DNA from: a virus
Direction: 5' to 3' (one strand)
Length of the DNA: 64,000 nucleotides
Virus record (IMG/VR): IMGVR_UViG_3300035698_021020
Coordinates: 1-64,000 of that record
The position numbers and the translations under genes are program-made. The notes under the pieces were generated by a model. It made no database searches, had not been told where the DNA came from, and worked only from the letters and a program-made list of their open reading frames with translations. Position 1 is the first letter of the stretch, and each line of letters opens with the position of its first letter. This document shows, one piece after another, positions 20,510-58,928 of the stretch.

Positions 20510-21046
20510 ATGGAGAATAGTAAAACAATAACTGATTTCCTAGACAAGGAATATCGAGACTATGCAGTTTATGTTCTTGAGGAACGAGCTATTCCATCTG
20601 TAATTGATGGATTTAAGCCAACTCAAAGAAAAATCATTTATATTGCAGATAAAGTCTGGAAGAATGGAAAAGAGAAGCCTTTGAAGGTATTCCAACTTGC
20701 AGGTAGAGTTGCAGCAGATGCTAAGTACCATCATGGCGACTGTCTTGATCCAGATACTGAGATATTATTAAGTGACGGTTCATATATCACAATATGTGAA
20801 TGGTTTGAAAAATATCGAGATACTAAACTTAAAGTTTTAGCATTTGATGAATCTACTGATAAATTTGTAGAAGCAATCGGTCATTCTCCTAGGATAGGTC
20901 AAGTTACTGATCTTGAGTATGAAATTGAGATGGAAGACGGTAGCATATTCAAATGCACAAACAATCATCCGTTCTTAACTCAGCGTGGATGGATTAAAGC
21001 TAAAGATTTAGAGGAAGACGACGACATAATAAATTTAAAATCATAA
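20510..21046 (+). CDS. Topoisomerase II small subunit (gp52/GyrA-like) N-extein fused to split-intein N-half
   Basis: ERAIPSVIDGFKPTQRK...YHHGD, then intein block A CLDPDTEILLSDG (from 20741) and block B CTNNHPFLT. Confidence 0.9.
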   Translation: MENSKTITDFLDKEYRDYAVYVLEERAIPSVIDGFKPTQRKIIYIADKVWKNGKEKPLKVFQLAGRVAADAKYHHGDCLDPDTEILLSDGSYITICEWFEKYRDTKLKVLAFDESTDKFVEAIGHSPRIGQVTDLEYEIEMEDGSIFKCTNNHPFLTQRGWIKAKDLEEDDDIINLKS

Positions 21047-21098
21047 TCCATCACCTTGGTGATATTTAGCCTAATAAATAAAATAAAAGCTAGTCACT

Positions 21099-22034
21099 AT
21101 GGAATTAAAATGCGATAAATGCAACATAATGTATAATAATAGCCCATATCTAAATACTAATAGAATTAATAATGATCCTATTAGATTTCTACATACATGT
21201 AAGGAATGTAGAAAAATTAAGAAATGTGGAAACTGCAATAATGAATTTAAACATTATCAGAATCAAACATGTTCTAAGAAATGTGCAGCTATTCTAAAGG
21301 AGAAAACATATATGTTAACACAGGGAGCTCCACATAATTTTTCTAAGAATTCGAAATCTAAAATTAGAATACAATTAGAATTACTAGAAAATGAAGGAAT
21401 ATCTAATGTTTTTCAAAGGGATACAGTAAAGGCTGCAATTAAAGCCACTATGATGACAAGATATGGTGTAGACAATATATCGAAATCTGAAGATATTAAA
21501 ATTAAAAAGAAAGAAACTCTTCGTCAAACGTTAATTGATAATCCTGATCTATTTAAGAACAAATGGTGGGAGAATCATAATAGATTTATAAATGACATAG
21601 GATATGATCCAAGATTGAGTATATTTGGAAAAGCGTCGATTGAATCAATGCTAGTATTTAATCCAATATCTAAATTATGCACATCACTTGGAATACTAGA
21701 ATCTGATATATATGTAGGACATGATACTAAATCTGAATATTTTATTAATATTGGTACTAAAACATATTTCTATGATTTCTGTATTAGATCTAAGAATATA
21801 ATAATCGAATATCATGGTGTCGGATTTCATGCAAATCCTACGTGGGAATTGACTAAACTAAATAAATGGAGATCTGCATTTACAAATGAGACCTCAAGTG
21901 AGAATATTAGAAAGACTAAAATAAAAAATAATGCAGCTATTAATAAAGGATTCAAGATTCTTGAAATATGGAGTGATTCCAATATAGATGACAATATTAA
22001 TCTGTGTAAAGCATTTATAAACGCTAACATATGA
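21099..22034 (+). mobile_element. Free-standing homing endonuclease (Cys-rich N-terminus, Vsr/EDxHD-like C-terminus) within fractured gp52
   Basis: CxxC motifs, YGVDNISK repeat-like segment, YDF...IIEYHG..FH...GFKILEIW. Confidence 0.8.
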
Positions 22035-23275
22035 AAATAAAATCTATTAAAATAAACAATCTAGAATCTCCTAAGAAATTCTATGATATAACCGTAGATA
22101 AGCATCACAATTTTGTAATTGGACGCAAATCTAAAATAGTGACACATAATTCATCATTGAATGGAGCTATTATAACCATGGCTCAGTCATTTAAGAACTC
22201 TATGCCTGTCCTTCAATCAATTGGACAATATGGATCATTACGATCTCCAGAAGCAGGAGCCCCAAGATATGTATCTACTAAACTTCATGAGAACTTCAGA
22301 CAGATCTACATGGATTTTGAATTGCTTACTCCAACTTATGATGAAGGCGATGAGATAGAACCAGAATATTTTCTTCCTATTATTCCAACTGTGTTACTGA
22401 ATGGGAGTTCAGGAATAGCGGTAGGGTTCGCAACTAATATCTTAAATAGAAATCCAATAGTTTTAATTGACTGTTGCCTAAAGGAATTGACTGGAAAGAG
22501 ATTTAATGAGCCTGTTCCATGGTACAATGGATACAATGGAGTTGTGCATAAAGATACAGCATCTGGCTCATGGATATTTAGCGGAAGATGGAATGCTAAA
22601 AATACAACTACTGTTGATATATCTGAACTTCCACCATCTATGACATATGAGAAGTATGACACATATCTTTCAAACAAAGAAGATCTTAGAGCTATTACGA
22701 GTTATGCGAACAGAGGTAAAGGTTCTATTGATTATGAAGTGAAGTTCTCTAGAAGCGAATTAGCTAGATTAACGACAAGTGATAGACTAACTCGTTTATT
22801 GAAGATGGAAGAAAAACAATCTGAGAATCTAACTGTCTTAGATGAGAATAAGAAACTGAAAATCTTCAAAAGCGCATCAGAGATAATCAAATACTTTGTT
22901 GCCTTTAGATTGAAATATTATGATAAGCGAAAAATTCATTTAATTGAGAAACTCAATAGAGAATTATTGATGCTTACAAATAGAGCTAGATTCATTAAAG
23001 ACATTATCGATAGGAAACTGAAAATCAATAATGTTCCTAAGCGAACTATAGTTCTTTATTTGGAAACCGCAGATTATGATGAAGTAGATAGATCATATAA
23101 CTATTTGCTTTATATGCCAATTCACTCACTAACTAAGGAAAGATATGAAGAGATCTTATCTGAAGTAGGAGATAAGAAGGTAGAATTAGTAGCAACAAAA
23201 AAGCTGAAACCTGCTACGATGTATGAAACAGATCTTAAAGATCTCAGATCAGCACTAATTAAGAAATACAAATGA
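22031..23275 (+). CDS. Split-intein C-half fused to topoisomerase II small subunit C-extein
   Basis: MKIKSI...FYDITVDKHHNFV...VTHN|S, then MAQ, GQYGS, catalytic APRY, LLNGSSGIAVGF. Confidence 0.9.
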   Translation: MKIKSIKINNLESPKKFYDITVDKHHNFVIGRKSKIVTHNSSLNGAIITMAQSFKNSMPVLQSIGQYGSLRSPEAGAPRYVSTKLHENFRQIYMDFELLTPTYDEGDEIEPEYFLPIIPTVLLNGSSGIAVGFATNILNRNPIVLIDCCLKELTGKRFNEPVPWYNGYNGVVHKDTASGSWIFSGRWNAKNTTTVDISELPPSMTYEKYDTYLSNKEDLRAITSYANRGKGSIDYEVKFSRSELARLTTSDRLTRLLKMEEKQSENLTVLDENKKLKIFKSASEIIKYFVAFRLKYYDKRKIHLIEKLNRELLMLTNRARFIKDIIDRKLKINNVPKRTIVLYLETADYDEVDRSYNYLLYMPIHSLTKERYEEILSEVGDKKVELVATKKLKPATMYETDLKDLRSALIKKYK

Positions 23276-24342
23276 GCGAAAATCAAACAGCATTAACTTA
23301 CGATGACGTGCAATTAATTCCTGCACGTTCATCAGTCGAATCAAGAGAAACTATTGATCTTACTACTCAATTAAGTAGGAATTATCAAATAATGACACCA
23401 TTTATTGCTTCATGTATGGACACAATATGTGAGAAAGAAATGGCGTTCAAAATGTTCCAATATGGTGGAGTAGGCTGCATCCATAGATTTATGTCAATTG
23501 AACAGCAGTGCGTACAAGTTAGATGGCTCTCAGTAGAAATATCTAATTACTTATCGACTGCTGACGACGATTGTATATGGGAATGTGCCCCTAGTGAGAT
23601 CCCAATAATGGCAGCAATCGGTATTGGTCATGATTATGTCGAACATGCAGAACGACTTGTCGATGATGGAGTAAATGTCATATTAATAGATGTTGCCCAT
23701 GGACATCATACTAGAGTTATGTTGGCTATTAAAAAACTAAAAGAAGTGTTACCTAAGCATGTCGATGTTATTGCTGGCAATATCGCAACTACTGAAGGAG
23801 CAGTCGCTCTCATAGAATCTGGAGTAGATGGACTCAGAGTTGGAATAGGCGGCGGTAGTCTATGTACAACTCGAATAAAAACAGGATTTGGTGTTCCAAA
23901 CCTAACCGCTATTCAGAATATCGCTAGACTAGGAAGTACTGTAGATATTCCAATCATGGCAGATGGCGGAATACGAAACAGTGGTGATATTGCAAAGGCT
24001 CTTGCCTTTGGCGCAGATTGCGTAATGCTAGGTTCTATTCTTTCTGGAACAGAAGAAACACCAGGAAAGATAATAGAACAAGACGGTGCTCTATTTAAAA
24101 GATACGCAGGAGCCGCTTCATTAGAAACCAAATCAAAACATGGTCAGAAAGAACGAAATATCGAAGGAGTATCTACAATGGTTCCATTCAAAGGAGGAGT
24201 AAAATTCACACTAGAAGGATTAATTGACGGATTAAAATCAGCTCTTTCATATGGAGGTGCTGAGAATATTTATAAATTTGCACCAGAATATTGTATAGTA
24301 ACTACTTCTGGTAGAATAGAAGCATCACCTCATAAAATATAA
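23272..24342 (+). CDS. IMP dehydrogenase / GMP reductase family protein (no CBS domains)
   Basis: [37 protein letters not shown]. Confidence 0.88.
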
Positions 24343-24343
24343 T

Positions 24344-24661
24344 ATGAGCAAAACAATAACAGTACGTGCAGATTTTCGAGATACTATTATTAATCTGAGT
24401 GAGATTACACGCATTGAAGCATTAGCTGATTATGTTATTATTCGAACTAAGACTGATAAGATCGTGACAGTGTCTACAATGAAAGGCATTCTTTCTCGTC
24501 TTCCTGAAAAATTCATAAGAACTCATCGTTCGCATATTGTGAATTCTGCTAAAATAAAGTCTGCTAATTATAAAGCAGTTATACTTCCAGGAAAAGTTGT
24601 TGTCCCAGTTGGACGAGCTTTCTGGAAAGAACTTCGAGATAAGCTTAGAACTGCTGCATAA
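24344..24661 (+). CDS. Stand-alone LytTR DNA-binding domain protein
   Basis: IEALADYV...LP.KFIRTHRSHIVN...PVGR. Confidence 0.85.
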   Translation: MSKTITVRADFRDTIINLSEITRIEALADYVIIRTKTDKIVTVSTMKGILSRLPEKFIRTHRSHIVNSAKIKSANYKAVILPGKVVVPVGRAFWKELRDKLRTAA

Positions 24662-24821
24662 TTTAGAGATCTTAGAGGCAAGTTACTGGGAGCATTTTAA
24701 ATACGCTAAGGATCTTGCGATGTATCTTCCATTAAAGCATCCTAAGCGAATTGCGATAGAAGCTGAGTTAAATAAAATGATAGAGGAGATCAACAAACTG
24801 AAAAAATCAAACTCGAAATAG
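24597..24821 (+). CDS. Hypothetical protein (start uncertain)
   Basis: Fills the gap in a co-oriented operon. Confidence 0.45.
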   Translation: MLSQLDELSGKNFEISLELLHNLEILEASYWEHFKYAKDLAMYLPLKHPKRIAIEAELNKMIEEINKLKKSNSK

Positions 24822-24836
24822 TATAATAATTACACA

Positions 24837-25127
24837 ATGGCCGAATACTCAAAACAATATTTAGATGTACATGATCCAGGCGGAATGGATCCTGATTTTG
24901 ATATCGAAGAAATCGCGTCTAGCCTGAGTAGTAAACAATATGCCTCGCAAATATGTGAAGGCTTTGGATTTATTGCAATTGGAAAAAATAAAACTGGTGA
25001 AATACAATTAGCCATGCCTACTGCTGAATCATTAAGTGGAGGTAAACCAGGAGCTACAGTAAATGTAGAATGGAAGTCACTCAAAGAAGTAATAACCAAT
25101 TCCAAAAAAAATGAAGAGGAAGTTTAG
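24837..25127 (+). CDS. Hypothetical protein
   Basis: 96 aa ORF, ICEG.GF motif. Confidence 0.6.
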   Translation: MAEYSKQYLDVHDPGGMDPDFDIEEIASSLSSKQYASQICEGFGFIAIGKNKTGEIQLAMPTAESLSGGKPGATVNVEWKSLKEVITNSKKNEEEV

Positions 25128-25419
25128 TCTTATTTTAATTTTATGTGTACTGTCAATTGGCGGAGTTATTGCACAAGATACAATTTTTATGTTCACTCCA
25201 CATAATGACCCTATTGTTCATCATACTGAATCGAGAGATTCGTTATTTATTTACAATAATACAATGGGTAGACTTATCCAAGAGATTTGGGTAGATGACC
25301 CTATTGATCATGATGGATACTCACCAGTTATTGTAATGGTCCCAACGGTTATTGTAATATTCCGAAAGAAATTAGAACACGCCAAAAATGAGCAAGCAAA
25401 TAACAGTAACTTTTACTGA
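25111..25419 (+). CDS. Hypothetical protein with signal-peptide-like N-terminus
   Basis: MKRK + hydrophobic stretch + VIA|Q. Confidence 0.55.
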   Translation: MKRKFSLILILCVLSIGGVIAQDTIFMFTPHNDPIVHHTESRDSLFIYNNTMGRLIQEIWVDDPIDHDGYSPVIVMVPTVIVIFRKKLEHAKNEQANNSNFY

Positions 25420-25552
25420 AACCGAACGAATTGCTATTAACACTCTTTCTCATATGTACGTTGATAAGATGGATGAGAAAGCGGACATGAGTAATCCAGT
25501 TCTTGTTCAAGTCAAAGCAACACTACAATCAATTCAGAAAAAACTAGTATGA
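25388..25552 (+). CDS. Small hypothetical protein (54 aa, not in ORF track)
   Basis: Manual translation MSKQITVTFTETERIAINTL...KKLV*; ATGA overlap with the next gene. Confidence 0.55.
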   Translation: MSKQITVTFTETERIAINTLSHMYVDKMDEKADMSNPVLVQVKATLQSIQKKLV

Positions 25553-25965
25553 TCTCAATAGAGAATACTACCATAGACGATCAGCCACATCAAATGGTTG
25601 CTGAGGGTTCAGAAGATTCTAAAATAGATGAGTCTGAAGTGTATATGTTTATGGATGCTCAAGGCTGGCATGTTCAATCAATCGAAATAAATTTCGATAC
25701 TCTTCAGTCAGTATGGCGATGGACTTGTAAATTACACACTAAAAATAGTCTTACTCTTCTTCAATTAAAGGAAAAGATTGATTATTTACTTAAACATAAT
25801 CCTAGGCATGCTAATTGGCAAGTTAAGATACTTGATAATTCACCTAGCATGGGAGCCAGATCATCTACTGCTATTGATAATCTAGATCCTGGATTTGATT
25901 GGGAATCAGGTATTATTCATTTAAAAACAAGAGTGCCTCTTTATAAACACAAAAAAGCAAAATGA
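25549..25965 (+). CDS. Hypothetical protein
   Basis: 138 aa ORF. Confidence 0.6.
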   Translation: MISIENTTIDDQPHQMVAEGSEDSKIDESEVYMFMDAQGWHVQSIEINFDTLQSVWRWTCKLHTKNSLTLLQLKEKIDYLLKHNPRHANWQVKILDNSPSMGARSSTAIDNLDPGFDWESGIIHLKTRVPLYKHKKAK

Positions 25966-26264
25966 TAACATTCTTTCTTATTCTTGGGATATTTTCTATT
26001 ATTAATCTAGTAGAACTTGGATATATGTGGTTCCAATGGGACAAAATCTCAGTCACTTTGGACATAACTAAAGGAGTTGTCAATATTGCAGGACAAAAGG
26101 AGAAACTGGACGCAATTGCTTCTATTGTATTAAGCGTCCTATCTAAATTCAAAGGACTAGTTATGATCCCTATAATCCTACTTCTTTTTATAAACCTTAT
26201 TGCTTCTATTGTCTTAGGTTTTATATTGTCAGGATTACATAGTATAGTACTATTATTCGTCTAA
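25962..26264 (+). CDS. Membrane protein
   Basis: Long hydrophobic helices. Confidence 0.6.
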   Translation: MITFFLILGIFSIINLVELGYMWFQWDKISVTLDITKGVVNIAGQKEKLDAIASIVLSVLSKFKGLVMIPIILLLFINLIASIVLGFILSGLHSIVLLFV

Positions 26265-26278
26265 AAACAAATCGGAAA

Positions 26279-26569
26279 ATGAAGTACAACCCAATTGACA
26301 TTCAAAAAGAATTGATTCGAAGTAAGATAATCGCTTACTTCATTCAGTATATTTCAGGTAACCTTTATTACAAGGTAACTTTAGAATCAGGAACATATCA
26401 GTTTCCTATAGAGACTACTGAACTTGTTGAAAAATCTGATGATCTATCTGAGATGATTCTATCTACAGATCTAGGTACCAGTAACTTTAATGCTGAAATG
26501 AAAGGATCTTATCTGAATCGCTGGATCCAGAAAGCAATTAAAAATAAAGAGTTCATTAAAATAGATTAA
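26279..26569 (+). CDS. Hypothetical protein
   Basis: 96 aa ORF. Confidence 0.6.
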   Translation: MKYNPIDIQKELIRSKIIAYFIQYISGNLYYKVTLESGTYQFPIETTELVEKSDDLSEMILSTDLGTSNFNAEMKGSYLNRWIQKAIKNKEFIKID

Positions 26570-26607
26570 GTCATTCTACGCAACCTACCCCAAAAGTGTG
26601 ACACAAG

Positions 26608-26639
26608 AAAAAGGCCTCTAAAAATTTAGAGGCCTTTTT
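26608..26639. terminator. Bidirectional intrinsic terminator between convergent operons
   Basis: AAAAAGGCCTCTAAA..TTTAGAGGCCTTTTT perfect inverted repeat with A/T tails, downstream of the capsid gene. Confidence 0.85.
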
Positions 26640-26658
26640 AAGTAAGCGTATTTAACTC

Positions 26659-28290: not shown

Positions 28291-28327
28291 TTTTTATATT
28301 GACTTTTTTTATTGTTACTTTTTACTA

Positions 28328-30358: not shown

Positions 30359-30369
30359 AGCCTGTTGAA

Positions 30370-30385
30370 TTTTTTATTATTTATT
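30370..30385 (-). promoter_or_regulatory. Putative late promoter for the head operon
   Basis: AATAAATAATAAAAAA upstream of the protease gene. Confidence 0.6.
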
Positions 30386-30416
30386 CAGGCTCCGAAGAAA
30401 AATTGACAGGAAGGTA

Positions 30417-31466
30417 TTAAATGTTCTTCAGCAGGGAAATAAGTAGAGTTTTATTCTTTTTCGTTAGTTTAGAAACATTTGGTGCCAGGACGTTGAATCG
30501 TATAGTATAATCACCCAGTTCACCAGATGAACCGATTATTCCACCTTTAGGCAATACGAACTTCAAATTATTAGTTGATTCAGGCTGATTAATTTTAGCC
30601 TCATATTTCTTTCCTATTATCGTTTCAATTTCAATCTTTTCTTCTTCCGATAATATTTTATATAGAGGGAGATCAACATATTGGATAATTTCACCATCAT
30701 TTATTTCAATTCTTTCTGGAATAACTAAATGAACTTCGATGAATAAGTCACCAGTAATTGGAACTAATATTTCTTCATTCCAAATATCAGTATTACGATA
30801 CACCTCTTCATTACCCATTTTCTGGACTCTGATTTTTGATGTATATACTCTATCATTTATTTTCTTAAATTGGAGATAATTAATTTTTGTATTTAGAGTA
30901 ATACTTATATCCTTATCTTCAGTAGACATATGGTATTTTATTTTACCATCTGCATATTTTCCATCATATGATATGACTTTTCTAGATACGTGAACTACTA
31001 TCTTTTCTCCAGTCATTGTTTCGACTAAGCTGACTTCTGCAGGAACAGTTAAAGATAGATGATCAAGAGTTGGTGGGGCTGCGTGAGTCTTTCCTTGAGT
31101 TCCTCTAGCGCTATCACTACTTTTCTGCCTAGCTCCTTTAGTATAATTGAATGGATTACTTTGAAAGTCTCTATCACGTCCTCCGTTTTTAAATCGATCC
31201 TTATTTATGAAGTCTTCAAAATCATCTACACTCGTTCTTCGAGTATAAGGTCGTTTAGGTTTTCTAGAATTATCATACGTTCTCTTCTTACTATCTGAAC
31301 TCAACGTATCATATGCTTCAGAAACTTGTTTAAATTTCTCTTCTGATGCTTTGCTTCCTTGGTTTTTATCAGGATGATACTTTACGGCTAACTTTCGATA
31401 TGCTGATTTTATCTCCGGCTTAGTAGCTAATTCAGTTACACCTAATATTGAATAATAATCTGTCAA
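30417..31466 (-). CDS. dnaJ: DnaJ-family co-chaperone (J domain, no Zn finger)
   Basis: DYYSILGV...[14 protein letters not shown]...[16 protein letters not shown]-terminal domain. Confidence 0.85.
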
Positions 31467-31471
31467 GATAT

Positions 31472-31498
31472 AAACTTTTTATTACTATCTTGTATAAG
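31472..31498 (+). promoter_or_regulatory. Putative early/middle promoter of the glycan operon
   Basis: AAACT-N15-GTATAAG. Confidence 0.65.
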
Positions 31499-36898: not shown

Positions 36899-37538
36899 CG
36901 GTAGTTTAATTAAAGTTGAATTAGAGAAGTACAATGCTCTTCATAATAGGAAAGCCTACGGTTTGGAAACAGCTAGGAAAAAGTGGTTTACTTTACCTAG
37001 TGATTCAAAATTTATACGCAAAGCCATTAAAATATTGTCAAGTTCAGATACTATTCTTGATGTAGCTTGTGGAAAGGGTTCATTTATTGATCACTTTAAA
37101 GAAACACTTAATTCAGAAATACAAGGAATCGATATTTCAAATATAGCTGTTGATTCTAGGCCAGATTTGAGTATTGATTTAGGAAGTATACACAGGCTGC
37201 CATATTCTGATAATTCATATGATTGTGTTTATCATTTAGACGGAATGGAACATATTCCTGTTACACTACAATCTAAGGTATTAGATGAGCAATTTAGAGT
37301 AGCAAAGAAATTTATCATACATAGTCTTAGCACTAATATTGATAAAAGGAGTGACGAATATCTAAAGAAGATAAATATTAATACAACATCAGTTCATATA
37401 AATCTTAAATCATTTGATGAATGGAAGAACTTCTTTAGAAAAAAAGCAAGAGAAAATGGATGGAAGATCATCGAATTTGATTGTGTTTCCTTTGATACAC
37501 AAGTTTGCATAATAATGAAAAATAATACAAGTAAATGA
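36891..37538 (+). CDS. Class I SAM-dependent methyltransferase
   Basis: ILDVACGKG, GIDIS, LPYSDNSYD, MEHI. Confidence 0.85.
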   Translation: MANGSLIKVELEKYNALHNRKAYGLETARKKWFTLPSDSKFIRKAIKILSSSDTILDVACGKGSFIDHFKETLNSEIQGIDISNIAVDSRPDLSIDLGSIHRLPYSDNSYDCVYHLDGMEHIPVTLQSKVLDEQFRVAKKFIIHSLSTNIDKRSDEYLKKININTTSVHINLKSFDEWKNFFRKKARENGWKIIEFDCVSFDTQVCIIMKNNTSK

Positions 37539-38428
37539 TAAAGACTCAAATAATAGGAGAAATTGGCATTAATTTCGCATATGGCGAGGATAAGACTAAA
37601 TTTCTTGAAAACACTAAAAAACTCATAGACGTTGCTTGTGTTGCAGGTTGCGATTATGTTAAATTCCAAAAAAGAACTCCAATTCTTTGTGTTCCAAATG
37701 AACAGAAAGGAAAGGCTAAACGAGTTCCATGGAACGAAAATGAAATAACTTATCTTGATTATAAGAATGACTCAGAATTTGGAAAAGCTGAATTTGATGA
37801 GATAGATAAGTATTGTGACGAAAAAGGAATGAAGTGGTTCGCATCAGTTTGGGATACCAAATCAGTTGATTTCATGAGTAAATATGAGATCTTACTTCCA
37901 AATAATACTTGGGGATCAATGATGAAGATTCCATCAGCTCTAATTAATGATGTCGCTTTAGTCGAATATGCTAGGGAATATTGTGAGTTCCTTATTATTT
38001 CAACAGGGATGAGTACTCAAAAAGAAATTGATACTGCAATATATGTAGGATCACCTGATGTAGTTATGCATACTAATTCTACATATCCTTCTCCAAATGA
38101 CGAATTGAATTTAGATTACATACGTTATTTAACCATGATGAATGATAGTGGCGATTTTGATAAGAAATTTGATGTTGGTTATTCTGGTCACGAATTTGGA
38201 CTAACTACTAGTATTGTTGCCACGGTACTTGGAGCAACATGGATAGAAAGACATATTACTTTAGATCGAACGTTATGGGGCAGTGATCAAATGGCCTCAG
38301 TAGAGCCACAAGGCCTAATTAAATTAGTAAAGAGTATTCGAGATATTGAGAATGCTAGAGGAGGATATGGGCCAAGAAAGGTTCTTGATTCTGAGAAGTC
38401 AAAGAGAAAAAGTTTAAGAGGAGAATGA
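37535..38428 (+). CDS. neuB: Nonulosonic acid synthase (NeuB family), lacking the C-terminal AFP/SAF domain
   Basis: GEIGIN, VKFQKR, KIPSA, ISTGM, HTNSTYP, GYSGHE, IERHITLDR..WGSD. Confidence 0.9.
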   Translation: MIKTQIIGEIGINFAYGEDKTKFLENTKKLIDVACVAGCDYVKFQKRTPILCVPNEQKGKAKRVPWNENEITYLDYKNDSEFGKAEFDEIDKYCDEKGMKWFASVWDTKSVDFMSKYEILLPNNTWGSMMKIPSALINDVALVEYAREYCEFLIISTGMSTQKEIDTAIYVGSPDVVMHTNSTYPSPNDELNLDYIRYLTMMNDSGDFDKKFDVGYSGHEFGLTTSIVATVLGATWIERHITLDRTLWGSDQMASVEPQGLIKLVKSIRDIENARGGYGPRKVLDSEKSKRKSLRGE

Positions 38429-48455: not shown

Positions 48456-48469
48456 ATAGAAGGTTTTGT

Positions 48470-48667: not shown

Positions 48668-48737
48668 GTGTCAAGCTTTAGGTTATTTATCAGAAGACTA
48701 TCATATCATGCTGATAAATAATAAAAATCATTACAAT

Positions 48738-51238: not shown

Positions 51239-51291
51239 TCGTGATAAACTTTTATTAATTACTTATACCACAAAAGGAAAATCAAGTTTTA

Positions 51292-53229
51292 CTATTGATT
51301 TTCCTCTGTAGTTTCATTATTCTCCTCGGAAGTAATGATATTGCCAATTGCTGATAGTCCTTTAAAGGTGACTTGAGATTCATTTAACTTAGTATATTCA
51401 CGTTCTTCTTTAATAGCAGCATCTTCAGTCGTTCCTTCTAATTCATTTCTAAGATTAAAAAACTCTGAAGCGATAGATTTTGGAACCTTCTTCTTAAATT
51501 CTTGAAAATTAGAATCTCTAATTAATGCTAACAAATCAGATGAAGCTACATAAGTAGGAAGCTCTATTAATTTGAAATCATCCATGAATTTGAATGGGAT
51601 TCTTCTTTTCTTTATGTGATCTAATTGAACTGCGAAATCTTTAATTCGCTTTTCAGTTGTTCCCCATAAGACTGGTTTATAATCTGATTGAATTGCATCA
51701 ATTACTTCCTCAATTTGACCAGAAGAAATTATTTTAATCTCAATTATATCTTGTGAATACTCTTGTTGAACTTTAGAAAGCATTGTTTTAGTTTGCTTTA
51801 AAGTAAATGGAGAAGTTTTAGTTTGAGAATCTGATTTGATTGCAATCAACACAGTCTTATGTCCATTTTCAGCATTCAATTTCTGAGTAGCCTTAATATG
51901 ACCTATTGAAATAGGCTGAAATTTCCCAATTAAAATATTAACAGAAGTTACTTTATGTTTTCTAGATCTATTTCTAACTGATTCTTGTTCGCTAACTAAT
52001 CCGCTTCCAACTGATACTCCGATGAATTCTTTGAAACTTGGGAATAAGCCCTCATAAACTGCATCTCCCATTATAATATTCTTAATCTTCTTAATAACGA
52101 GGTTCAACTGATTAAGCAATTCTGGAGTAAAGAATCCAGCTTGTGATTTCTTTCGAGTTCTTCTAAAGAAATTCAATAGAATTTTGTATATCTCAGTATA
52201 TGTTTCATTATTCGCAATAATTGACTTTACTTCTGGATCATTAATCAATTCAGTATTTAAAGCAAATTCAGGTCTCTTTAAATAATCTGGAACTTCTAAC
52301 ATAAGTCCTTTATATTTTGAGCTATATTCCTTAATAAAATCTTTGAATATCTTATTTATAAGATTCAAATACTTCTCATCAAAGGTTGAACCTGAGTTAG
52401 CTGCTTGTGTTAATTCCGAAATATCATAAAGCTCAATATGGTTCATAATATCTAATATGATGAGCCAAATATAATCTTGTGAAACATTCGGTTTAGCTTC
52501 ATTATCTTTAAGTCTCTGTTGGAATACCGGATCCATGATCTTTGCTAAGAAAACTCGTTCTTCTGGATTTTCCGAAGCATCGTCATAAAATCTAAATACA
52601 ATAGTATCTATATCTCTACCACCAGTGATGAAGGATTCATCAGCTAGAATCGATAGAATATATTTAGTGAATGATTTAGTTCTGAATTTATCATTAAGTT
52701 CATCTAACGGAGTATATATAAATTCCAATATATCAGAGCGTTGCTCATCATCTAAATGACCTTCAAATACGATTGGAGGTCTTTCTACTTCTAAGTAATC
52801 TGCCCATTTGTCAAGTTGTTCCTTAGTCTGAACAGTCTTTAAAATATTTCCTGAATCATCTAATCGATGAATATAAGAAAGCATCAAGTCATTCTTAGGA
52901 ATAACCTTAAGTCCTTGTTCATATGCATCTCCTCTAGTAAAATATTGAAATCCGAAATAGAAGTTAGATAGAATTCTATTACGCTTTTCTGGTGACATAC
53001 TGTTAAAGTATGATATTGCTGGATTGTAGTACTTCATTAGCACTCTATCCACATAACTAATTTCACCTGATTTTTTGAAGTATTGGAATCTATCATCTTT
53101 GCTTTTCTTTACACCAAAGAAGGCACCATCTATTCTCTCATTTATGATAACATAATTGTTGAGTAGACCGGTTAGAAAGTCTTTACCTTTCTTCTCATAA
53201 ATCTCACGTAAATTGTTTATTCCTGCCAT
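51292..53229 (-). CDS. Ligase-like N-domain fused to HxGH-type nucleotidyltransferase
   Basis: INERIDG near the N-terminus; IGKFQPISIGH...SPF in the C-domain. Confidence 0.55.
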   Translation of the reverse strand: MAGINNLREIYEKKGKDFLTGLLNNYVIINERIDGAFFGVKKSKDDRFQYFKKSGEISYVDRVLMKYYNPAISYFNSMSPEKRNRILSNFYFGFQYFTRGDAYEQGLKVIPKNDLMLSYIHRLDDSGNILKTVQTKEQLDKWADYLEVERPPIVFEGHLDDEQRSDILEFIYTPLDELNDKFRTKSFTKYILSILADESFITGGRDIDTIVFRFYDDASENPEERVFLAKIMDPVFQQRLKDNEAKPNVSQDYIWLIILDIMNHIELYDISELTQAANSGSTFDEKYLNLINKIFKDFIKEYSSKYKGLMLEVPDYLKRPEFALNTELINDPEVKSIIANNETYTEIYKILLNFFRRTRKKSQAGFFTPELLNQLNLVIKKIKNIIMGDAVYEGLFPSFKEFIGVSVGSGLVSEQESVRNRSRKHKVTSVNILIGKFQPISIGHIKATQKLNAENGHKTVLIAIKSDSQTKTSPFTLKQTKTMLSKVQQEYSQDIIEIKIISSGQIEEVIDAIQSDYKPVLWGTTEKRIKDFAVQLDHIKKRRIPFKFMDDFKLIELPTYVASSDLLALIRDSNFQEFKKKVPKSIASEFFNLRNELEGTTEDAAIKEEREYTKLNESQVTFKGLSAIGNIITSEENNETTEENQ

Positions 53230-53241
53230 GATGTGTATTGA

Positions 53242-53835
53242 TTATAGATCGCTATTATCTATCTCTGGCTTAACCTCAGCCTTTGGCTTCTCTTCTACTT
53301 CTTTTTCTACTTCTGGTTTAGCCTCTTTCTTAGGTCCATTTTCTTCTTCTTTTCGATGAAGTTCTGTTCTAATACTCTTTGAGTCCATACTAATTGTAAT
53401 ACTTTGGATGCTATCTGCATCTTCTTTATTCTTAAGGAAGTATTTTAAAAGTTTCTTAAGATTCATATTAAGTGACTCTTCTCCGAAACCGCCAGTCTCA
53501 CTTATTTTGTCCTTTAATTCTTTAGTAGCTTCCCAGCTTCCTTTGTAACTAATTGACCAAACATAAAATCTAACGTCTTCATCCTTACTTCCGTAATAAT
53601 GATCATGGTCTTTAATCTTTTGGATTGCGCCATTTGCATCTCGATAAGTAGTAGTTCTACCTAAAGTATCAGTCGGCACTCCGAATCTCACACTATCAGG
53701 AAGAACTTGCATTAGTTCTTCAATACGTTCAATGATTTGACCAGACTTATAACCTTTTAAAGGTTTGCCCTTTTTATCGCTGTGTTCGTCTTGTTCCTTT
53801 AGATATTCGGTGAATCCTATAACTCTTCTACCCAT
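53242..53835 (-). CDS. Hypothetical late protein
   Basis: Late box at 53845-53860; VIGFTEYLKE N-motif. Confidence 0.6.
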   Translation of the reverse strand: MGRRVIGFTEYLKEQDEHSDKKGKPLKGYKSGQIIERIEELMQVLPDSVRFGVPTDTLGRTTTYRDANGAIQKIKDHDHYYGSKDEDVRFYVWSISYKGSWEATKELKDKISETGGFGEESLNMNLKKLLKYFLKNKEDADSIQSITISMDSKSIRTELHRKEEENGPKKEAKPEVEKEVEEKPKAEVKPEIDNSDL

Positions 53836-53855
53836 TGTGATAGATTTTTTATTAT

Positions 53856-54473
53856 TTATCCTAAGACTGGAATGCTATTCACTATATTATTCATAGTCTT
53901 ATTAAACCTAGCAATACTCTCTTCATCAAAGTTATTATTGAAATATTCCAATGAATTATTTCTAGTAGTATCAGCCATATGTCTAGTCATCTGATAATAT
54001 ACTTTAGAAAAGTATCTAGATTCTATTTCAGGATTCTCGAAATTGTCAAAATAGTCATGTGATTTATCACGATCTGAATCATTAAGATCTGCTGATCTAG
54101 TTATATGTAATACACTTACGTCATGAAATAACTCAGAATTACTTAAAACAGCTTCAAATTCATCCATTAATCTTCCTTCATGCATTCTACGTCTATACAT
54201 AGACCAAACATATGCTGAGAAAATCGACCTGTCAAATACTAGAATCTTATCTTTAAATATCGTATTATTCAATTCAAAAATAGTTAGAACATTTGCTATG
54301 CTGAAGTAATGTATTCCAGGACCAGTCTCTTGATCCTCTAGTCCTAAGTCGCTCAAATACTTTGAGAATTGGAACTTATAATATTGAACACGCGGGTCTG
54401 TATTTTGTGCAAAGAATGCATCCATTAAATGCGTTTTTCCCACGTGCCTACTACCTTCTACTAATATTAACAT
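53856..54473 (-). CDS. Thymidylate-kinase-like dNMP kinase
   Basis: ILVEGSRHVGKT P-loop, FDRS. Confidence 0.7.
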   Translation of the reverse strand: MLILVEGSRHVGKTHLMDAFFAQNTDPRVQYYKFQFSKYLSDLGLEDQETGPGIHYFSIANVLTIFELNNTIFKDKILVFDRSIFSAYVWSMYRRRMHEGRLMDEFEAVLSNSELFHDVSVLHITRSADLNDSDRDKSHDYFDNFENPEIESRYFSKVYYQMTRHMADTTRNNSLEYFNNNFDEESIARFNKTMNNIVNSIPVLG

Positions 54474-54516
54474 TCGTTTAATTTTTTTAAATATCGTGGG
54501 CCTTCAATCATTAAAA

Positions 54517-55068
54517 TCATATCAGTATTACTTTTTTAGCACCGCTTATTTGAATATTGTCAATCTTGAACATGTTAGACTTATCAACCAAATATAGTTT
54601 TACCTCATATGCATGTTCAACACTATTAAAATAGTCTTGATACAATGAAAGCTGATGAATAGAATCTTCATAAATCTCAATGACATTAATATTCGGACGA
54701 GCCTCCAGCATTATGATAACTTCATCTACTTTTGGGGTTCTTCGTCCTAAGAAATGAAATTCGTTAAATTTAATGCTTCTATTACTTAGAACTAACTTAA
54801 CTTCTTTTTCTACTTCTTTAACTCTGTGAGTTATTAAAGTTTGAAAGGTCTTCATATCTCCTCTGCCTTCTTTCCACGCATCATATACTGGTCCAACCAT
54901 TTGAATGTTGTATACATTATCATTTAATGAATTCGGGTGGTCATAAAAGTCATACGGGTGTGTGAACGTTATTTCTGAATTTTCTGCTAGTCTTTTGCTA
55001 GCATAACTAGGGACTCGAACGAATGTCTCGTCAAAGTCAAATACTTGTAATCGATTATATTGTTCCAT
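54517..55068 (-). CDS. HAD-family phosphatase
   Basis: VFDFDET, LITHR, K, YEDS; start re-assigned to MEQYNR at 55068. Confidence 0.7.
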   Translation of the reverse strand: MEQYNRLQVFDFDETFVRVPSYASKRLAENSEITFTHPYDFYDHPNSLNDNVYNIQMVGPVYDAWKEGRGDMKTFQTLITHRVKEVEKEVKLVLSNRSIKFNEFHFLGRRTPKVDEVIIMLEARPNINVIEIYEDSIHQLSLYQDYFNSVEHAYEVKLYLVDKSNMFKIDNIQISGAKKVILI

Positions 55069-55108
55069 GTACCTGTCTTCTACAGATAAATAATAAAAAG
55101 TTTTCAAC

Positions 55109-55597
55109 TTGGGCAAACTCAAATACATAATGCTGCGTGAAGAACTTATCGAAGATGAGGCAGAAACTTCTGAGGGTACTTGGAATCATATTCGAGATGC
55201 AATACAAACAAAAGTTCCATTTGTCATAATCACATTTAAGACTAAGGAAAGCTGTAATGCTGCAATTAAAACAGATCTTAGAGAATATAATGTGACTCGT
55301 CAATTAAATATTCTGTATAGAAATAATGATAAGTTGAAATACCCATCCGTTTTCTTCGTATTAAATAAAGACTTTGACTTTAAAGAAAGAGTTAAGGATC
55401 TATTTGAGAAATATGATGTTCGAATGATTATTATTGGAGTACAGAATGGAGATTCATCTACTGTTTACTTTGAAGATGGCTCGTCTAGTAATTATGGAAA
55501 CGAAGTAGTCAATGTGCTTGACCAAGCTGAATTCCAAAATGAGGATCACTTCAAAGTAGGTTCAATGCATTACCAATTCGTAGAATTTAAAAAATAA
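55109..55597 (+). CDS. Hypothetical late protein
   Basis: TTG start after late box 55085-55099. Confidence 0.6.
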   Translation: MGKLKYIMLREELIEDEAETSEGTWNHIRDAIQTKVPFVIITFKTKESCNAAIKTDLREYNVTRQLNILYRNNDKLKYPSVFFVLNKDFDFKERVKDLFEKYDVRMIIIGVQNGDSSTVYFEDGSSSNYGNEVVNVLDQAEFQNEDHFKVGSMHYQFVEFKK

Positions 55598-55622
55598 ACT
55601 ATTATACTACTTTGAGTATAAG
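55596..55622 (+). promoter_or_regulatory. Putative early/middle promoter
   Basis: AAACT-N15-GTATAAG upstream of uvsY/uvsW. Confidence 0.65.
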
Positions 55623-55640
55623 ATATAAAACATTGATTAA

Positions 55641-56099
55641 ATGAGCGATGTTGCAAAATCAGAAAAGGAATTAACTCCACAAGAAAAAATGGCTGCTCGC
55701 TTTGAAACAGAGCGAAGTAAAGTATCAAAGGAAATTTACGAAAATATTGGCTATCTATCTAGCTTGAATACTCTTGGTCAAGCACAAGTCAATATGTTAT
55801 CATTACGACAACGTCTACTTGAGGATAATCATACTCTGTTAGAACATATAACTAAACTTCAAAGAGATTATAGAAAGAAAAGAGCGCTTGCTCTTGAACA
55901 ACTCTCAACGAATCAACAATATCGGTTCCAATCTAAGGAAAAAGATGCATTAGTAGATGGAAAGCTTTCCGATACTAAGCAATGGCTTGAAATGTTTGAA
56001 AATCAAGTTCAATTCTTTAATGATACTATGCGAACAGTTGACAACATCATTTTTGGACTCAAAACTCGACTAGATATAGAAAAAACAGTAGGCATGTAA
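55641..56099 (+). CDS. UvsY-like recombination mediator
   Basis: Helical 152 aa protein with a D..IFGLK..LD.EK C-terminus, adjacent to uvsW. Confidence 0.55.
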   Translation: MSDVAKSEKELTPQEKMAARFETERSKVSKEIYENIGYLSSLNTLGQAQVNMLSLRQRLLEDNHTLLEHITKLQRDYRKKRALALEQLSTNQQYRFQSKEKDALVDGKLSDTKQWLEMFENQVQFFNDTMRTVDNIIFGLKTRLDIEKTVGM

Positions 56100-56101
56100 T
56101 C

Positions 56102-57124
56102 ATGCTTAGGTTTAAAATATCTGAGGACAAGAAAACCGTTAAGCTTGTTCATTTCGATCTGAATTCTGAACGGAGCCACCTAGTTTCTTACTTCAAAAAG
56201 AAATCAAAGAAAGCTGACTTTAATGTGTTGGTTGAACGTGGCATATGGGATGGAATGGATTCATTCTTTAAAGACAACGAGATAAAAATAGGTCTATGGA
56301 AAGAGATCTATAATTTCGCTGACCAATACGGTTATGAAACTGAAATTGAAGGAATAGAGAAGCATCTAAATTTATCATTCACTAAGGAGAAGTATGACAA
56401 GTATGTTACTGATTTACTTGATGGAGTTACTGACGAATTTGGAGAGCCTCTAATTCCAAGAAATTATCAAGCTGAGTCTGCATATAGAGCAATAAAGTAT
56501 AAATTCTGTACTCAAGAACTAGCAACTGCTGCTGGTAAGACCTTAATCTTCTACATATTCAATTCATTCCTTAGAGACGCTGGCAAAATTAACAAAAAGT
56601 CAAAGGCTTTGTTAATCGTTCCAAAGGCTGGATTAGTAAACCAGACAGCACTTGCATTTAACAGATTTACAAAGAAAGGGAGAGATCCACTTAAGCTTTG
56701 CCTAATTGGTGGAAAGAATAAATTCGACCAGAAGATATTTGATGAATCTGAAATGATTATAGCCACTTATCAAAGCCTAAATCATTGGCCAGAGGAGAGG
56801 TTCAAGTCAATTTATTGTGTAGATGTTGATGAATGCTTGCATCCAAGCACTTTAATAACAATGTCGGATTATACTACTAAGTCTATCTCTAATATTAATA
56901 TTGGAGATTCCATAATAACAAAGAATGATATGACTGGAGAACTAGAAGTCAGTGAAGTAGATAAAATACATCATAATTTATCTAGTGAAGAAAATATGTT
57001 TGACTTGGAGTTAGAGGATGGGACTAATATATTACTTACTGGTAATCATAGAATTAAATTAGTATCTGGTGAATATATTAGAGTTGATGAATTAACTGGA
57101 GAAGAAGATATTATGTCCCTCTAA
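56102..57124 (+). CDS. uvsW: UvsW helicase N-extein fused to split-intein N-half
   Basis: WDG, PRNYQ, ATAAGKT, TYQS, VDE, then CLHPSTLITMSD (from 56834) and LTGNHRI. Confidence 0.9.
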   Translation: MLRFKISEDKKTVKLVHFDLNSERSHLVSYFKKKSKKADFNVLVERGIWDGMDSFFKDNEIKIGLWKEIYNFADQYGYETEIEGIEKHLNLSFTKEKYDKYVTDLLDGVTDEFGEPLIPRNYQAESAYRAIKYKFCTQELATAAGKTLIFYIFNSFLRDAGKINKKSKALLIVPKAGLVNQTALAFNRFTKKGRDPLKLCLIGGKNKFDQKIFDESEMIIATYQSLNHWPEERFKSIYCVDVDECLHPSTLITMSDYTTKSISNINIGDSIITKNDMTGELEVSEVDKIHHNLSSEENMFDLELEDGTNILLTGNHRIKLVSGEYIRVDELTGEEDIMSL

Positions 57125-57141
57125 TTTTATGAAGTTCTTTA

Positions 57142-57149
57142 TATAAATA
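57142..57149 (+). promoter_or_regulatory. Perfect T4-type late box TATAAATA upstream of endonuclease
   Basis: Exact TATAAATA ending 12 nt before ATG 57162. Confidence 0.65.
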
Positions 57150-57161
57150 AAAGTAAAGGAA

Positions 57162-57976
57162 ATGACTAAACTCGAATTATATAACCATATAAATACAAAT
57201 AAGTCTAAATTTATTGCTATTTCCGGTAAAAGTATTGATGATAATTTAAAAATTGGTTAGAACAAGAGAAAATATCAATTCCAATACCTAAAATAACAGT
57301 AAATGCAGTATATGACTATCTTTTAAATAATAAAGGAAAATATTGTGCACTTTGTCGTTCTGAAAATAGATTCAAATCTTTAAATTTAGGATATACTTTA
57401 TTTTGTTCAAAGTCGTGTCTTCATAAATGGCGATCTATTAATATGTCTGGTAAAAACAATAATGTCTTTAAAATGTCAAATGAAGCCAAATTAATCAGTA
57501 GAAAAAGGCAATCTGATACTATGAAACAACTTATATTAGATGGTAAGTTTACACCAACTGTAACAAATAGCTGGTGTAAATCTAGAATTAAAGTCAATAT
57601 TTCTAGAAATAGTGAAGATATTATAATATCATGTCGATCATCTTGGGACGCATATTTTCAAATACATAATCCTACTTTTTTATATGAGAATGTTAGAATA
57701 CCATATGAATATTGTGGAAAATTCAAAGTTTATTTAGTAGATTTTGTTGATACTTCTAATAGAAAACTATATGAGATTAAACCAAGTGGATTAATTGAGT
57801 CTAAAATGAATAGACTTAAAGAACATGCTGCTATTTCTTGGGCTAAATCAAATAATTATACCTTTGAATTTATTACTCAAAAATGGTTTAAGAAATACTT
57901 TGATATATCGAAAATAAAAACGCAGTCTGAATATACTAAAATTAAAAGATTACTATCCCAATTTCATGAAAATTAA
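57162..57976 (+). mobile_element. Free-standing PD-(D/E)XK (TnsA-N-like) endonuclease within fractured uvsW, interrupted by a -1 frameshift
   Basis: Frame from ATG 57162 stops at TAG 57258-57260; the -1 frame is open with CALC/CSKSC and joins ORF 57443..57976 (RSSW, YE..RIPY, YLVDF, YEIKP). Confidence 0.75.
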
Positions 57977-58928
57977 AAAAATAACAAAATTAGGTAGGGC
58001 AGGGGAAGTTTTTAACTTGCGTATTAAAACACAATCTGATGCAAATCATAATTATTTTGCAAATGGAATAAATGTAGCAAATTGTCATAAAAGTAGAGGA
58101 AATGTAATCAAGAAGGTAATAGAATACTGTATAAACTGGAGATATATGCTTGGTTTATCTGGAACAGTAAAGCTTGATGAAAAATACTCCGATTATTTCA
58201 GAATGCTTGAAACAATTGGTCCATTGGTTCTTACTTTATCTGCGAAGCACCTAATTGACAATCAGTATTCTCCAAATATCAAAATTAAGCAAATTAAGCT
58301 GGCTTATGATAAAGATAGTGAATATTTGAAGAAATATTGGGACTTGAAGGCAAATGGGGCTTCCATGTACTCAAATAAGCGAGATTTTGGAGGAGATATG
58401 TTCGAATTGGAAAAACAATTCCTTTATAATAATCCAGAACGACTATCTTTCATAAATGAACTAGTTAGGCGTCTAAATAAGAACACATTAGTCTTATTTT
58501 CGAATATCAAAGATGAATATGGCAAAAAGATATATGAAGAGATTTCAAAATGGAATAAGCATACCTTTTATATCGATGGTGAAGTAGATAATGATCTTCG
58601 TGAACAATATAAGGCAATAATGGAAGCAGAAGACAATGTTGTCATCGTTGCTTCATTTGGGACGTTCTCAACCGGTATTGATATTAAGAAAGTGTATCAC
58701 ATTATCTTTGCTGAATCAACCAAAGCTGAAATAACCATTCGCCAATCGATAGGTAGAGGAATGAGAGCGTTTAAGAATAAATTAGCAACATATATTTGGG
58801 ACATCGTCGATATGCTTGATGGATATATGGTCAAGCACTCAAAGGCTCGACTTAAGATCTATAAAGAGCAGAAATTTGAAGTATCTAATATGGATGTAGA
58901 TCTAACGAAGTTCAATAAGCCTAATTGA
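57966..58928 (+). CDS. uvsW: Split-intein C-half fused to UvsW C-extein
   Basis: MKIKKI...VFNL...NHNYFANGINVAN|CH, then GLSGT, STGIDI, QSIGRGMR, DIVD. Confidence 0.9.
   Translation: MKIKKITKLGRAGEVFNLRIKTQSDANHNYFANGINVANCHKSRGNVIKKVIEYCINWRYMLGLSGTVKLDEKYSDYFRMLETIGPLVLTLSAKHLIDNQYSPNIKIKQIKLAYDKDSEYLKKYWDLKANGASMYSNKRDFGGDMFELEKQFLYNNPERLSFINELVRRLNKNTLVLFSNIKDEYGKKIYEEISKWNKHTFYIDGEVDNDLREQYKAIMEAEDNVVIVASFGTFSTGIDIKKVYHIIFAESTKAEITIRQSIGRGMRAFKNKLATYIWDIVDMLDGYMVKHSKARLKIYKEQKFEVSNMDVDLTKFNKPN

Follow-up and report, generated by a model that had tools for sequence, protein, structure and literature searches.

Fractured genes were described by Dassa et al. 2009 (gp41-1, gp41-8, NrdJ-1, IMPDH-1, NrdA-2 and others; PMC2677866) as replication or repair genes that are divided into two same-strand open reading frames (ORFs) by a naturally split intein. 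The N-terminal intein half (IntN) has about 100 amino acids (aa), the C-terminal half (IntC) about 40 aa, and the two are separated by an endonuclease ORF whose 3' end extends over the start of the C piece. Two loci of this layout were found in the window analysed here, i.e. the 64,000 nucleotides at positions 1 to 64,000 of the virus record IMGVR_UViG_3300035698_021020, which has 72,390 bases in total. One interrupts the gene for the medium subunit of a type II topoisomerase, the other the gene for a UvsW-like helicase. Both share the above properties with the described cases, including the overlap between endonuclease and C piece (here 4 and 11 nt). Opposite charges on the halves, phage origin, the element TATAAATA upstream of one endonuclease gene and a Vsr-like endonuclease in one locus are further common traits. 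The differences concern the two host genes, which are not listed there ('UvsW', 'topoisomerase' and 'gp52' occur 0 times in the main text of PMC2677866), the presence of two loci on one contig, and the endonuclease of the UvsW locus, which would be TnsA-like of the PD-(D/E)xK type and not GIY-YIG or Vsr-like.

Other known split inteins resemble one of the two loci each. NrdJ-1 (8ubs) has an acidic IntN and a basic IntC like the topoisomerase intein (PMC2677866), but its host gene and insertion site differ and the similarity is low. The cyanobacterial DnaE inteins (Npu, Ssp; 7qil, 4lx3, 4kl5, 1zd7) share Cys1 and Cys+1 with the UvsW intein, and Ssp DnaE, going by what is cited of it, likewise has no penultimate His. 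In contrast, their halves are encoded at distant loci without an endonuclease, and the Asn at block F position 4 is a feature of the UvsW intein. S16-like phages (Gelderlandvirus, e.g. CF-SP2, OM912978.1) and Proteus phage PM2 have the same UvsW insertion site (DE/CH), the same intein family (41/94 IntN residues identical) and the same endonuclease family. The S16-like phages also carry two pairs, both with acidic IntN and basic IntC. However, their second pair is located in UvsX instead of the topoisomerase and has a different endonuclease, and their UvsW IntC keeps the penultimate His.

A literature search retrieved no paper with both 'split intein' and 'UvsW' and none on an intein in gp52. 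Atypically split inteins in UvsX and a T4-like helicase have reportedly been found in a lake metagenome, a report that the search did not retrieve. Fractured genes for the two host proteins were thus not found described, whereas the layout itself is of the kind known since Dassa 2009.

The reading that we favour, with a probability of about 0.7, is that the record is a fragment of a large T4-like or huge phage and contains two independent fractured genes, whose products would be restored by protein trans-splicing and whose intein pairs would not cross-react to a meaningful extent. Judged by their motifs, both loci hold a class 1 intein (HINT splicing domain) that is naturally split. A scan of the whole record with PF14890 (Intein_splicing) matched the four intein halves (4/4 candidates) and nothing else, with E-values from 4.6e-8 to 2e-3. 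All four matches are under the curated cut-off, which is expected because they are half domains. Since the record is only 28% complete according to CheckV, the number of two split-intein pairs is a lower bound for the genome.

The first-pass annotation had placed two split-intein pairs between positions 20741 and 58082, and this is borne out by the ORF layout, the junctions and the Pfam matches. The Cys1 codon of the topoisomerase IntN (residue 78 of ORF 20510..21046) begins at position 20741, and the Asn codon with which the UvsW IntC terminates (residue 39 of ORF 57966..58928) ends at position 58082. Its description of the halves was also confirmed from the sequence: both IntC start with MKIK(S/K)I, are basic and have 40 and 39 aa, and both IntN are acidic and have about 100 aa (101 and 96 aa, pI ~4.4). 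Blocks F and G differ between the pairs as it had stated, with FYDITV and THN followed by Ser+1 in the topoisomerase and VFNLRI and VAN followed by Cys+1 in UvsW. The features of both loci are listed in the table.

Table. Features of the two fractured genes in the window (positions of the window; nt, nucleotides).
Feature	Position	Strand	Evidence and remarks
Topoisomerase II large (GyrB-like) subunit, intact	18577..20445	+	Pfam DNA_gyraseB, Toprim, TOPRIM_C, HATPase_c; first gene of co-directional cluster
Fractured topoisomerase II medium subunit gene	20510..23275	+	N-piece ORF 178 aa (20510..21046); C-piece ORF 414 aa (22031..23275)
Topoisomerase II medium (GyrA/gp52-like) N-extein, 77 aa, end HHGD	20510..20740	+	PF00521 E 2.2e-14, residues 26-77
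Topoisomerase IntN, 101 aa + stop; Cys1, block B T150-N-N-H153	20741..21046	+	PF14890 profile positions 2-93
Free-standing homing endonuclease gene, 311 aa	21099..22034	+	phrog_3339 'homing endonuclease' E 1.7e-4 (weak)
Topoisomerase IntC, 40 aa, end HN	22031..22150	+	PF14890 profile positions 124-155; start overlaps endonuclease stop by 4 nt (22031-22034)
Topoisomerase II medium C-extein, start SSLNG (Ser+1)	22151..23275	+	PF00521 E 9.2e-62, residues 40-395
Fractured UvsW-like gene	56102..58928	+	N-piece ORF 340 aa (56102..57124); C-piece ORF 320 aa (57966..58928)
UvsW-like superfamily 2 (SF2) helicase N-extein, 244 aa, ends in motif II D-E	56102..56833	+	Pfam DEAD, ResIII, UvsW_N (weak)
UvsW IntN, 96 aa + stop; Cys1, block B T313-G-N-H316	56834..57124	+	PF01079 Hint E 1.1e-6; PF14890 E 2.1e-5
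TATAAATA, T4-type late-promoter-like element	57142..57149	+	13 nt upstream of endonuclease ORF start
Second endonuclease gene, N-terminal 32-codon fragment, other frame	57162..57260	+	aligns with N-terminus of intact 280-284-aa homologues (L012, L016)
Second endonuclease, main frame (putative PD-(D/E)xK, TnsA-like)	57245..57976	+	open from 57245, first ATG 57443 (177 aa); tblastn of L012 endonuclease residues 49-284, E 1e-48
UvsW IntC, 39 aa, end AN	57966..58082	+	PF14890 E 2e-3; overlaps endonuclease 3' end by 11 nt (57966-57976)
UvsW-like helicase C-extein, start CHKS (Cys+1 completes motif II DE-CH)	58083..58928	+	Helicase_C E 1.1e-7

The topoisomerase intein is inserted at a highly conserved site, between HHGD and Ser. 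Its IntN has an isoelectric point (pI) of 4.37 and a net charge of -12, its IntC a pI of 10.09 and a net charge of +6. In a sequence search of the Protein Data Bank (PDB), the nearest solved relative of the IntN was the NrdJ-1 intein 8ubs (E 2e-5, residues 6-97). The fractured N piece is widespread, with 229 proteins at E<=1e-5 among 254 candidates. For its alignment, 89 of the 120 listed matches, namely those with an intein annotation on record, were combined with the window to give 90 sequences. The alignment of the C piece comprises 70 of 100 matches and the window (71 sequences) after exclusion of truncated, ~580-590-aa, 435-450-aa, partially covering and near-duplicate matches. C78, T150 and H153, which represent Cys1 and the T..H of block B, are invariant in 90/90 N pieces. 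H39, N40 and S42 are invariant in 71/71 C pieces, and the +1 nucleophile S41 is kept in at least 90%. Both assisting residues, D19 (block F position 4) and H39 (block G position 6), are invariant as well.

The UvsW intein also occupies a highly conserved site, inside helicase motif II between DE and CH. Its halves show the same charge distribution, with a pI of 4.34 and a net charge of -13 for the IntN and a pI of 10.29 and a net charge of +5 for the IntC. The best solved relatives of its IntN are cyanobacterial DnaE inteins (E 2e-3 to 1e-2), while the IntC halves of both loci yielded weak matches only in the PDB sequence searches, that of the topoisomerase without a match to NrdJ-1. C245, T313 and H316 are invariant in 7/7 UvsW N pieces, and N39 and C40 in 4/4 C pieces; the latter two are the same in Lak-B2 and CF-SP2. 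Since the catalytic residues are invariant across the relatives of both inteins, the intein motifs are not a product of chance.

The first-pass annotation had argued that two split-intein pairs in one genome must either be orthogonal or produce chimeras. This dichotomy is sound, and its orthogonal branch is favoured by the divergence of the pairs, the preference of the structure model and published orthogonality. The addition that such a pair was naturally selected did not find support, and orthogonality at this divergence may be incidental. Between the two loci, 27/86 residues (31%) of the IntN and 12/35 residues (34%) of the IntC are identical. Compared with the IntC of the topoisomerase, that of UvsW contains an insert of 4 residues after block F, and its loop before block G is shorter by 3 residues. 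The two IntN also have different nearest solved relatives, NrdJ-1 in one case and the DnaE inteins in the other. According to the available text of PMC7090010, 15/16 diverse split inteins were mutually orthogonal in cells, and gp41-1, gp41-8, NrdJ-1 and IMPDH-1 were used together in one pot.

The comparison of cognate and non-cognate pairs by structure modelling, which the first-pass annotation had proposed, was carried out in one direction with a three-chain model. Here, the topoisomerase IntN and the UvsW IntN were offered at once to the topoisomerase IntC. The topoisomerase halves were modelled as one HINT assembly with a score of 0.88, compared to 0.49 for the best of 3 controls, where the score expresses model confidence and not affinity, and all confident contacts listed are with the cognate IntN. 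The mark used was reached by 58/80 solved complexes and by 2/110 mismatched pairs. At least 95% of the contacts are shared between the runs, and the predicted local distance difference test (pLDDT) value of the partner is at least 83. As split-intein complexes have already been solved, likeness to known structures may drive this pass. In the model, the loop GHSPRIG of the topoisomerase IntN, which is invariant in its family, packs on the block F strand KKFYDITV of the IntC. The counterparts in UvsW are IHHNLS and EVFNLRI, whose residues are unrelated to the topoisomerase loop and conserved within their own family. This modelled contact is a plausible seat of specificity. Because the contacting parts are family-specific, the IntC loop lengths differ and each pair probably comes from one mRNA, it is most likely that the two pairs do not cross-react to a meaningful extent.

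The observations that weigh against this reading concern the activity of the UvsW pair and the separation of the two pairs. The UvsW intein has Asn17 instead of the usual Asp at block F position 4 and Ala38 instead of the usual His at block G position 6, which makes its activity less certain. Its class 1 membership stands, since these residues assist catalysis and do not define the family. The UvsW alignments are shallow (7 and 4 sequences), and the loci in the alignment of four sequences were found partly by a pattern derived from the first 8 IntC residues. In addition, the endonuclease gene of this locus carries a frameshift, the large protein collection yielded only 3 close homologues, and a UvsW gene that is broken at another site (L017, see below) indicates that non-splicing remnants exist. 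Taken together, this would fit a UvsW pair that splices poorly or no longer, with its halves acting as a non-covalent dimerisation module or belonging to a decaying gene, and there would then be no orthogonality problem. We consider this unlikely given the invariance of Cys1, T..H, the terminal Asn and Cys+1 in 7/7 and 4/4 sequences as well as in Lak-B2 and CF-SP2. The Asn at block F position 4 is present throughout the UvsW family, which suggests a working variant and not decay. Block G position 6 is Ala in the window, Ser in L012, L016, L018 and Lak-B2, and His in CF-SP2 and the other S16-like phages. Asp and His at these positions are common but not universal assisting residues, and loss of the block G His is tolerated in several inteins (PMC4031507). 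The Ssp DnaE split intein, described as efficient, also lacks this His, as far as the title of Sun et al. 2005 (cited by PMC2664965) tells.

The second group of observations relates to the possibility that the pairs cross-react measurably. In this case, either dead-end chimeras would form between the topoisomerase N-extein and the UvsW C-extein and in the reverse combination, as the thioester chemistry is independent of extein identity, or halves would be sequestered in non-cognate complexes. Electrostatic steering cannot separate the pairs, since polarity and the MKIK first strand are common to both, with the first six IntC residues being near-identical. The MKIK start itself is no sign of cross-reactivity because it is general to phage split inteins with a basic IntC and was seen in five gene contexts here. 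In the control in which the topoisomerase IntN was replaced and the UvsW IntN left, the score of 0.49 was accompanied by 193 confident contacts and exceeded the absolute mark of 0.32. The contacted chain is not stated for this control, and the contacts are presumably those with the UvsW IntN; close cousins of a true partner can reach the mark of this tool. The model thus points to a preferred cognate partner with some residual fit to the non-cognate IntN, in the single direction modelled, that of the topoisomerase IntC. Moreover, the IntN families are not far apart, since the topoisomerase IntN and the S16-type UvsW IntN are 43% identical in a global alignment and 36.3% over 97 residues with tblastn. 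The available text of bioRxiv 10.1101/546465 reports that cyanobacterial DnaE split inteins cross-react mutually and that charge alone had no decisive role in their cross-activity. Nevertheless, measurable cross-reaction appears distinctly improbable in view of the low identity between the pairs of the window, the insert and the deletion in the UvsW IntC, the unrelated and family-specific IntN loops at the modelled contact and the choice of the cognate partner when both IntN were offered. Diverged natural split inteins tested so far were mostly orthogonal (available text of PMC7090010), and selection against wasted replication proteins would act in any genome with both pairs.

For both loci, a common course of events is proposed. 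A class 1 mini-intein at a highly conserved site would have been cut into IntN and IntC by a free-standing homing-endonuclease gene at the point where endonucleases are usually inserted. The endonuclease would be transcribed together with the N and C pieces, which we infer from the tight spacing, the start/stop overlaps and the lack of a terminator-like site between the pieces on the plus strand. The acidic IntN and the basic IntC of each pair would then associate and fold into one HINT domain, and protein trans-splicing would ligate the exteins into an intact topoisomerase subunit and an intact helicase. Finally, homing by the endonucleases would carry the cassette into alleles without an intein. 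Within each co-directional cluster, about 1 kb lies between the two halves of a pair, and both halves are probably made from one mRNA. Scans for sigma-70 promoters and terminators were uninformative, with counts equal to those in shuffled sequences.

The timing of expression can be compared with phage T4, where, according to the available text of PMC3016281, uvsW is expressed from a late promoter and the RNAs of origin R-loops come from middle-mode promoters that are shut off late. The first-pass annotation had taken all four precursors to coexist in the infected cell, for which no support was obtained. If the phage behaves like T4, the two precursor sets would peak at different times. Among the sequencing runs that contain the UvsW locus, no RNA run was listed. 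That the pairs never meet at all, because expression of the topoisomerase genes precedes replication, that of uvsW is late and splicing is fast beside the own polycistronic mRNA, so that insulation would be temporal and spatial and not structural, is very unlikely: the T4 promoter, the position of TATAAATA just upstream of the endonuclease and C piece at the UvsW locus only, and the compact clusters without internal terminator-like sites agree with it, but TATAAATA is not enriched in the window (6 found vs 13.6 expected), unspliced topoisomerase halves could persist to late times, and the idea is compatible with the favoured explanation and not exclusive of it.

The topoisomerase site was found in three states. 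It is empty in uninterrupted genes of 447-453 aa on the IMG/VR contigs L023-L030, which have Gly or Ala where the intein alleles have Ser+1. A contiguous mini-intein without an endonuclease is present in the ~590-aa proteins P0181 and P0198, and a split intein with an endonuclease in L021, L022, L031 and LR756500.1. This series is a direct illustration of how an endonuclease can fracture an intein-bearing gene. Compared with L021, the cassette of the window is identical in 95/101 residues of the IntN (94%), 39/40 of the IntC (98%) and 270/311 of the endonuclease (87%), whereas the identity is 52/77 (68%) for the N-extein and 236/374 (63%) for the C-extein. Since the intein halves and the endonuclease are far more alike than the exteins, this indicates that the cassette has recently spread laterally. 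The contiguous protein P0181 has kept the Met-Lys-Ile-Lys start of the IntC in its interior. Another protein of the same topoisomerase subunit, P0220 (580 aa), has a contiguous intein with Cys+1 a few residues upstream of the site used in the window, which points to a second insertion site in the same motif.

The UvsW intein is rarer. In addition to the matches in the protein collection, it was found in the phage records of 4 Lak-B, 8 S16-like Salmonella and 2 Proteus PM2 phages and in a few IMG/VR loci. Among nine near-identical records of Prevotella Lak-B megaphages, the split intein is present in B2, B4, B7 and B8 only, and the other five match after the IntC, which looks like a presence/absence polymorphism. 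Two further UvsW genes are arranged differently. In L017 (650..3152), another endonuclease-like ORF interrupts UvsW at a different site, and the tails of its pieces resemble intein pairing strands (the C piece starts with MKIKKITK) without Cys1 and the terminal His-Asn. These tails may represent a remnant that does not splice but serves to associate the pieces. In L018 (3965..4768), a second IntN-like tail stands at the end of the UvsW C piece, with another ORF after it, which suggests that this gene is fractured a second time.

The endonuclease of the topoisomerase locus consists of an N-terminal Cys-rich/helical module and a C-terminal Vsr-like nuclease domain of the I-Bth0305I type (residues 178-311). 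A search of cluster representatives gave 2,572 relatives at E<=1e-3, and an AF2 model built on 66 relatives reached a pLDDT of 90.9. The C-terminal domain aligns with I-Bth0305I (3r3p_A) over 94 of 97 residues with a Z-score of 10.1, a root-mean-square deviation of 2.4 and 21% identity in VIA-align, and with Vsr at Z-scores of 9.4 (1cw0) and 8.8 (1vsr). Likewise, the four best matches of the model in Foldseek are Vsr and I-Bth0305I. The C-terminal catalytic fold is thus common to this family, from which the N-terminal DNA-binding part of the topoisomerase-locus endonuclease differs. Candidate catalytic residues are E237, which is invariant in the 66 aligned homologues, and D226 and H244, which are kept in at least 90% of them. 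The Vsr-like family of endonucleases was first described in fractured genes by Dassa et al. (PMC2677866). PDB sequence searches with the endonucleases of both loci returned nothing meaningful. Between the topoisomerase N piece and this endonuclease gene lies a weak putative RNA hairpin (21050..21102, plus strand; minimum free energy -11.3 kcal/mol, z -2.06, 8/200 shuffles as stable). It includes an inverted repeat at 21050-21063, and its 3' arm extends to the endonuclease ATG at 21099. The same test upstream of the endonuclease in the UvsW locus was weak as well (z 0.40).

The endonuclease of the UvsW locus matches phrog_15427 'endonuclease' (E 2.9e-30) in its C-terminal half only (profile positions 124-262 of 270), and the Pfam TnsA-like N domain below the cut-off (E 2.9e-4). 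The residues D100, E111 and K113 of the D...ExK motif are invariant in 4/4 sequences. Its model (pLDDT 72) resembles TnsA best, although weakly, with Z-scores of 5.8 (1t0f) and 5.4 (1f1z), i.e. below 8. The two frames of the gene meet at the canonical -1 slippery heptamer T_TTA_AAA (57245-57251), where a -1 shift restores a gap-free alignment with the intact homologues. No stable stimulatory RNA structure was found downstream of the heptamer (z 0.56), and a plain frameshift mutation is at least as likely as programmed -1 frameshifting. Reads over 57173-57293 were found in run X1 only (0.94 of the sampled words, possibly the source sample), with no joints or indels reported. As X1 alone covers the site, the frameshift is without independent read support. 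All runs with parts of 55600..59200 (X1-X5) are labelled salt lake metagenome, and X2-X4 contain short, identical pieces. The same TATAAATA element that precedes this gene has been reported upstream of fractured-gene endonucleases (PMC2677866).

Two pairs in one genome are not a special case, since relatives and cultured T4-like phages carry at least two co-resident pairs. The closest phage record, LR756500.1 (462 kb), has 11 PF14890 matches. At least three of its genes are complete fractured genes with N piece, endonuclease ORF and C piece, namely those for the topoisomerase medium subunit, DNA polymerase B and ribonucleotide reductase. A fourth gene, that for the topoisomerase large subunit, contributes a C piece, which starts with an IntC-like segment with HN before Ser and lies just downstream of a separate 373-aa ORF. 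In this C piece no Pfam intein domain was flagged, and the N piece was not found. The IntC are acidic in the DNA polymerase, the ribonucleotide reductase and the topoisomerase large subunit (net charge -8 to -11) and basic in the topoisomerase medium subunit (+3), so that split-intein pairs of both charge polarities are used in this genome. UvsW of LR756500.1 was rejected as an IntC carrier; the tblastn match had started from residue 1, and the ORF is an intact 504-aa gene. The IMG/VR contig of L018 (G003) has 5 intein-domain matches in 81 kb at no fewer than 3 loci, while a 207-kb relative that is 81% complete has zero PF14890 matches.

Among cultured T4-like phages, CF-SP2 and the S16-like Salmonella phages (S16, STP4-a and others) carry a split intein and an endonuclease gene in UvsX as well as in UvsW. 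In CF-SP2, both pairs consist of an acidic IntN and a basic IntC, and their identity is 33% for the IntN and 41% for the IntC. The S16-like records annotate the pieces only as uvsW_1/uvsW_2 and uvsX_1/uvsX_2. Co-resident split-intein pairs are therefore not rare but common. The S16-like phages with their two same-polarity pairs are a viable precedent for the situation in the window, and they make the question of cross-talk testable in a cultured system.

Protein ligation relies mainly on natural split inteins, and there is a demand for sets whose members function alongside each other. The practical value of the two loci lies in two further natural split inteins and in the pointer to cultured phages in which cross-talk can be measured. 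Orthogonality of diverged split inteins is the expected outcome and would not surprise specialists. A broader idea, to which we would give even odds, is that the split inteins of phages accumulating fractured genes form sets whose members have already been put to the test against each other in vivo, and that specificity between pairs of the same polarity is provided by non-electrostatic, family-specific contacts. In the S16-like phages as in the window, the two pairs agree in polarity and in the first IntC strand, and in the topoisomerase intein the contacts in question would be those of the GHSPRIG loop with the block F strand. If true, such genomes would be ready-made sources of same-polarity orthogonal pairs and a natural system to study the specificity code of split inteins.

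Some further genes of the window were noted. The topoisomerase C piece is followed by an intact gene of the IMPDH/GMP-reductase family (23272..24342), which overlaps its end by 4 nt; IMPDH is one of the fractured host genes in Dassa 2009 (PMC2677866). The gene for DNA polymerase B is divided into two ORFs that lie 57.7 kb from each other (2385..3806 and 61477..62916, both on the plus strand) without intein motifs at the break. The first covers the exonuclease domain and motif A (PF03104; PF00136 positions 35-141), and the beginning of the second is shortly before motif B (PF00136 positions 147-238). A polymerase piece of LR756500.1 (L011, 3914..4684, minus strand) has the same start point and is further fractured by a split intein downstream. 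A DnaJ-like chaperone and a NeuB-family sialic-acid synthase (30417..31466 (-), 37535..38428) are encoded as well, beside gp23-like capsid genes.

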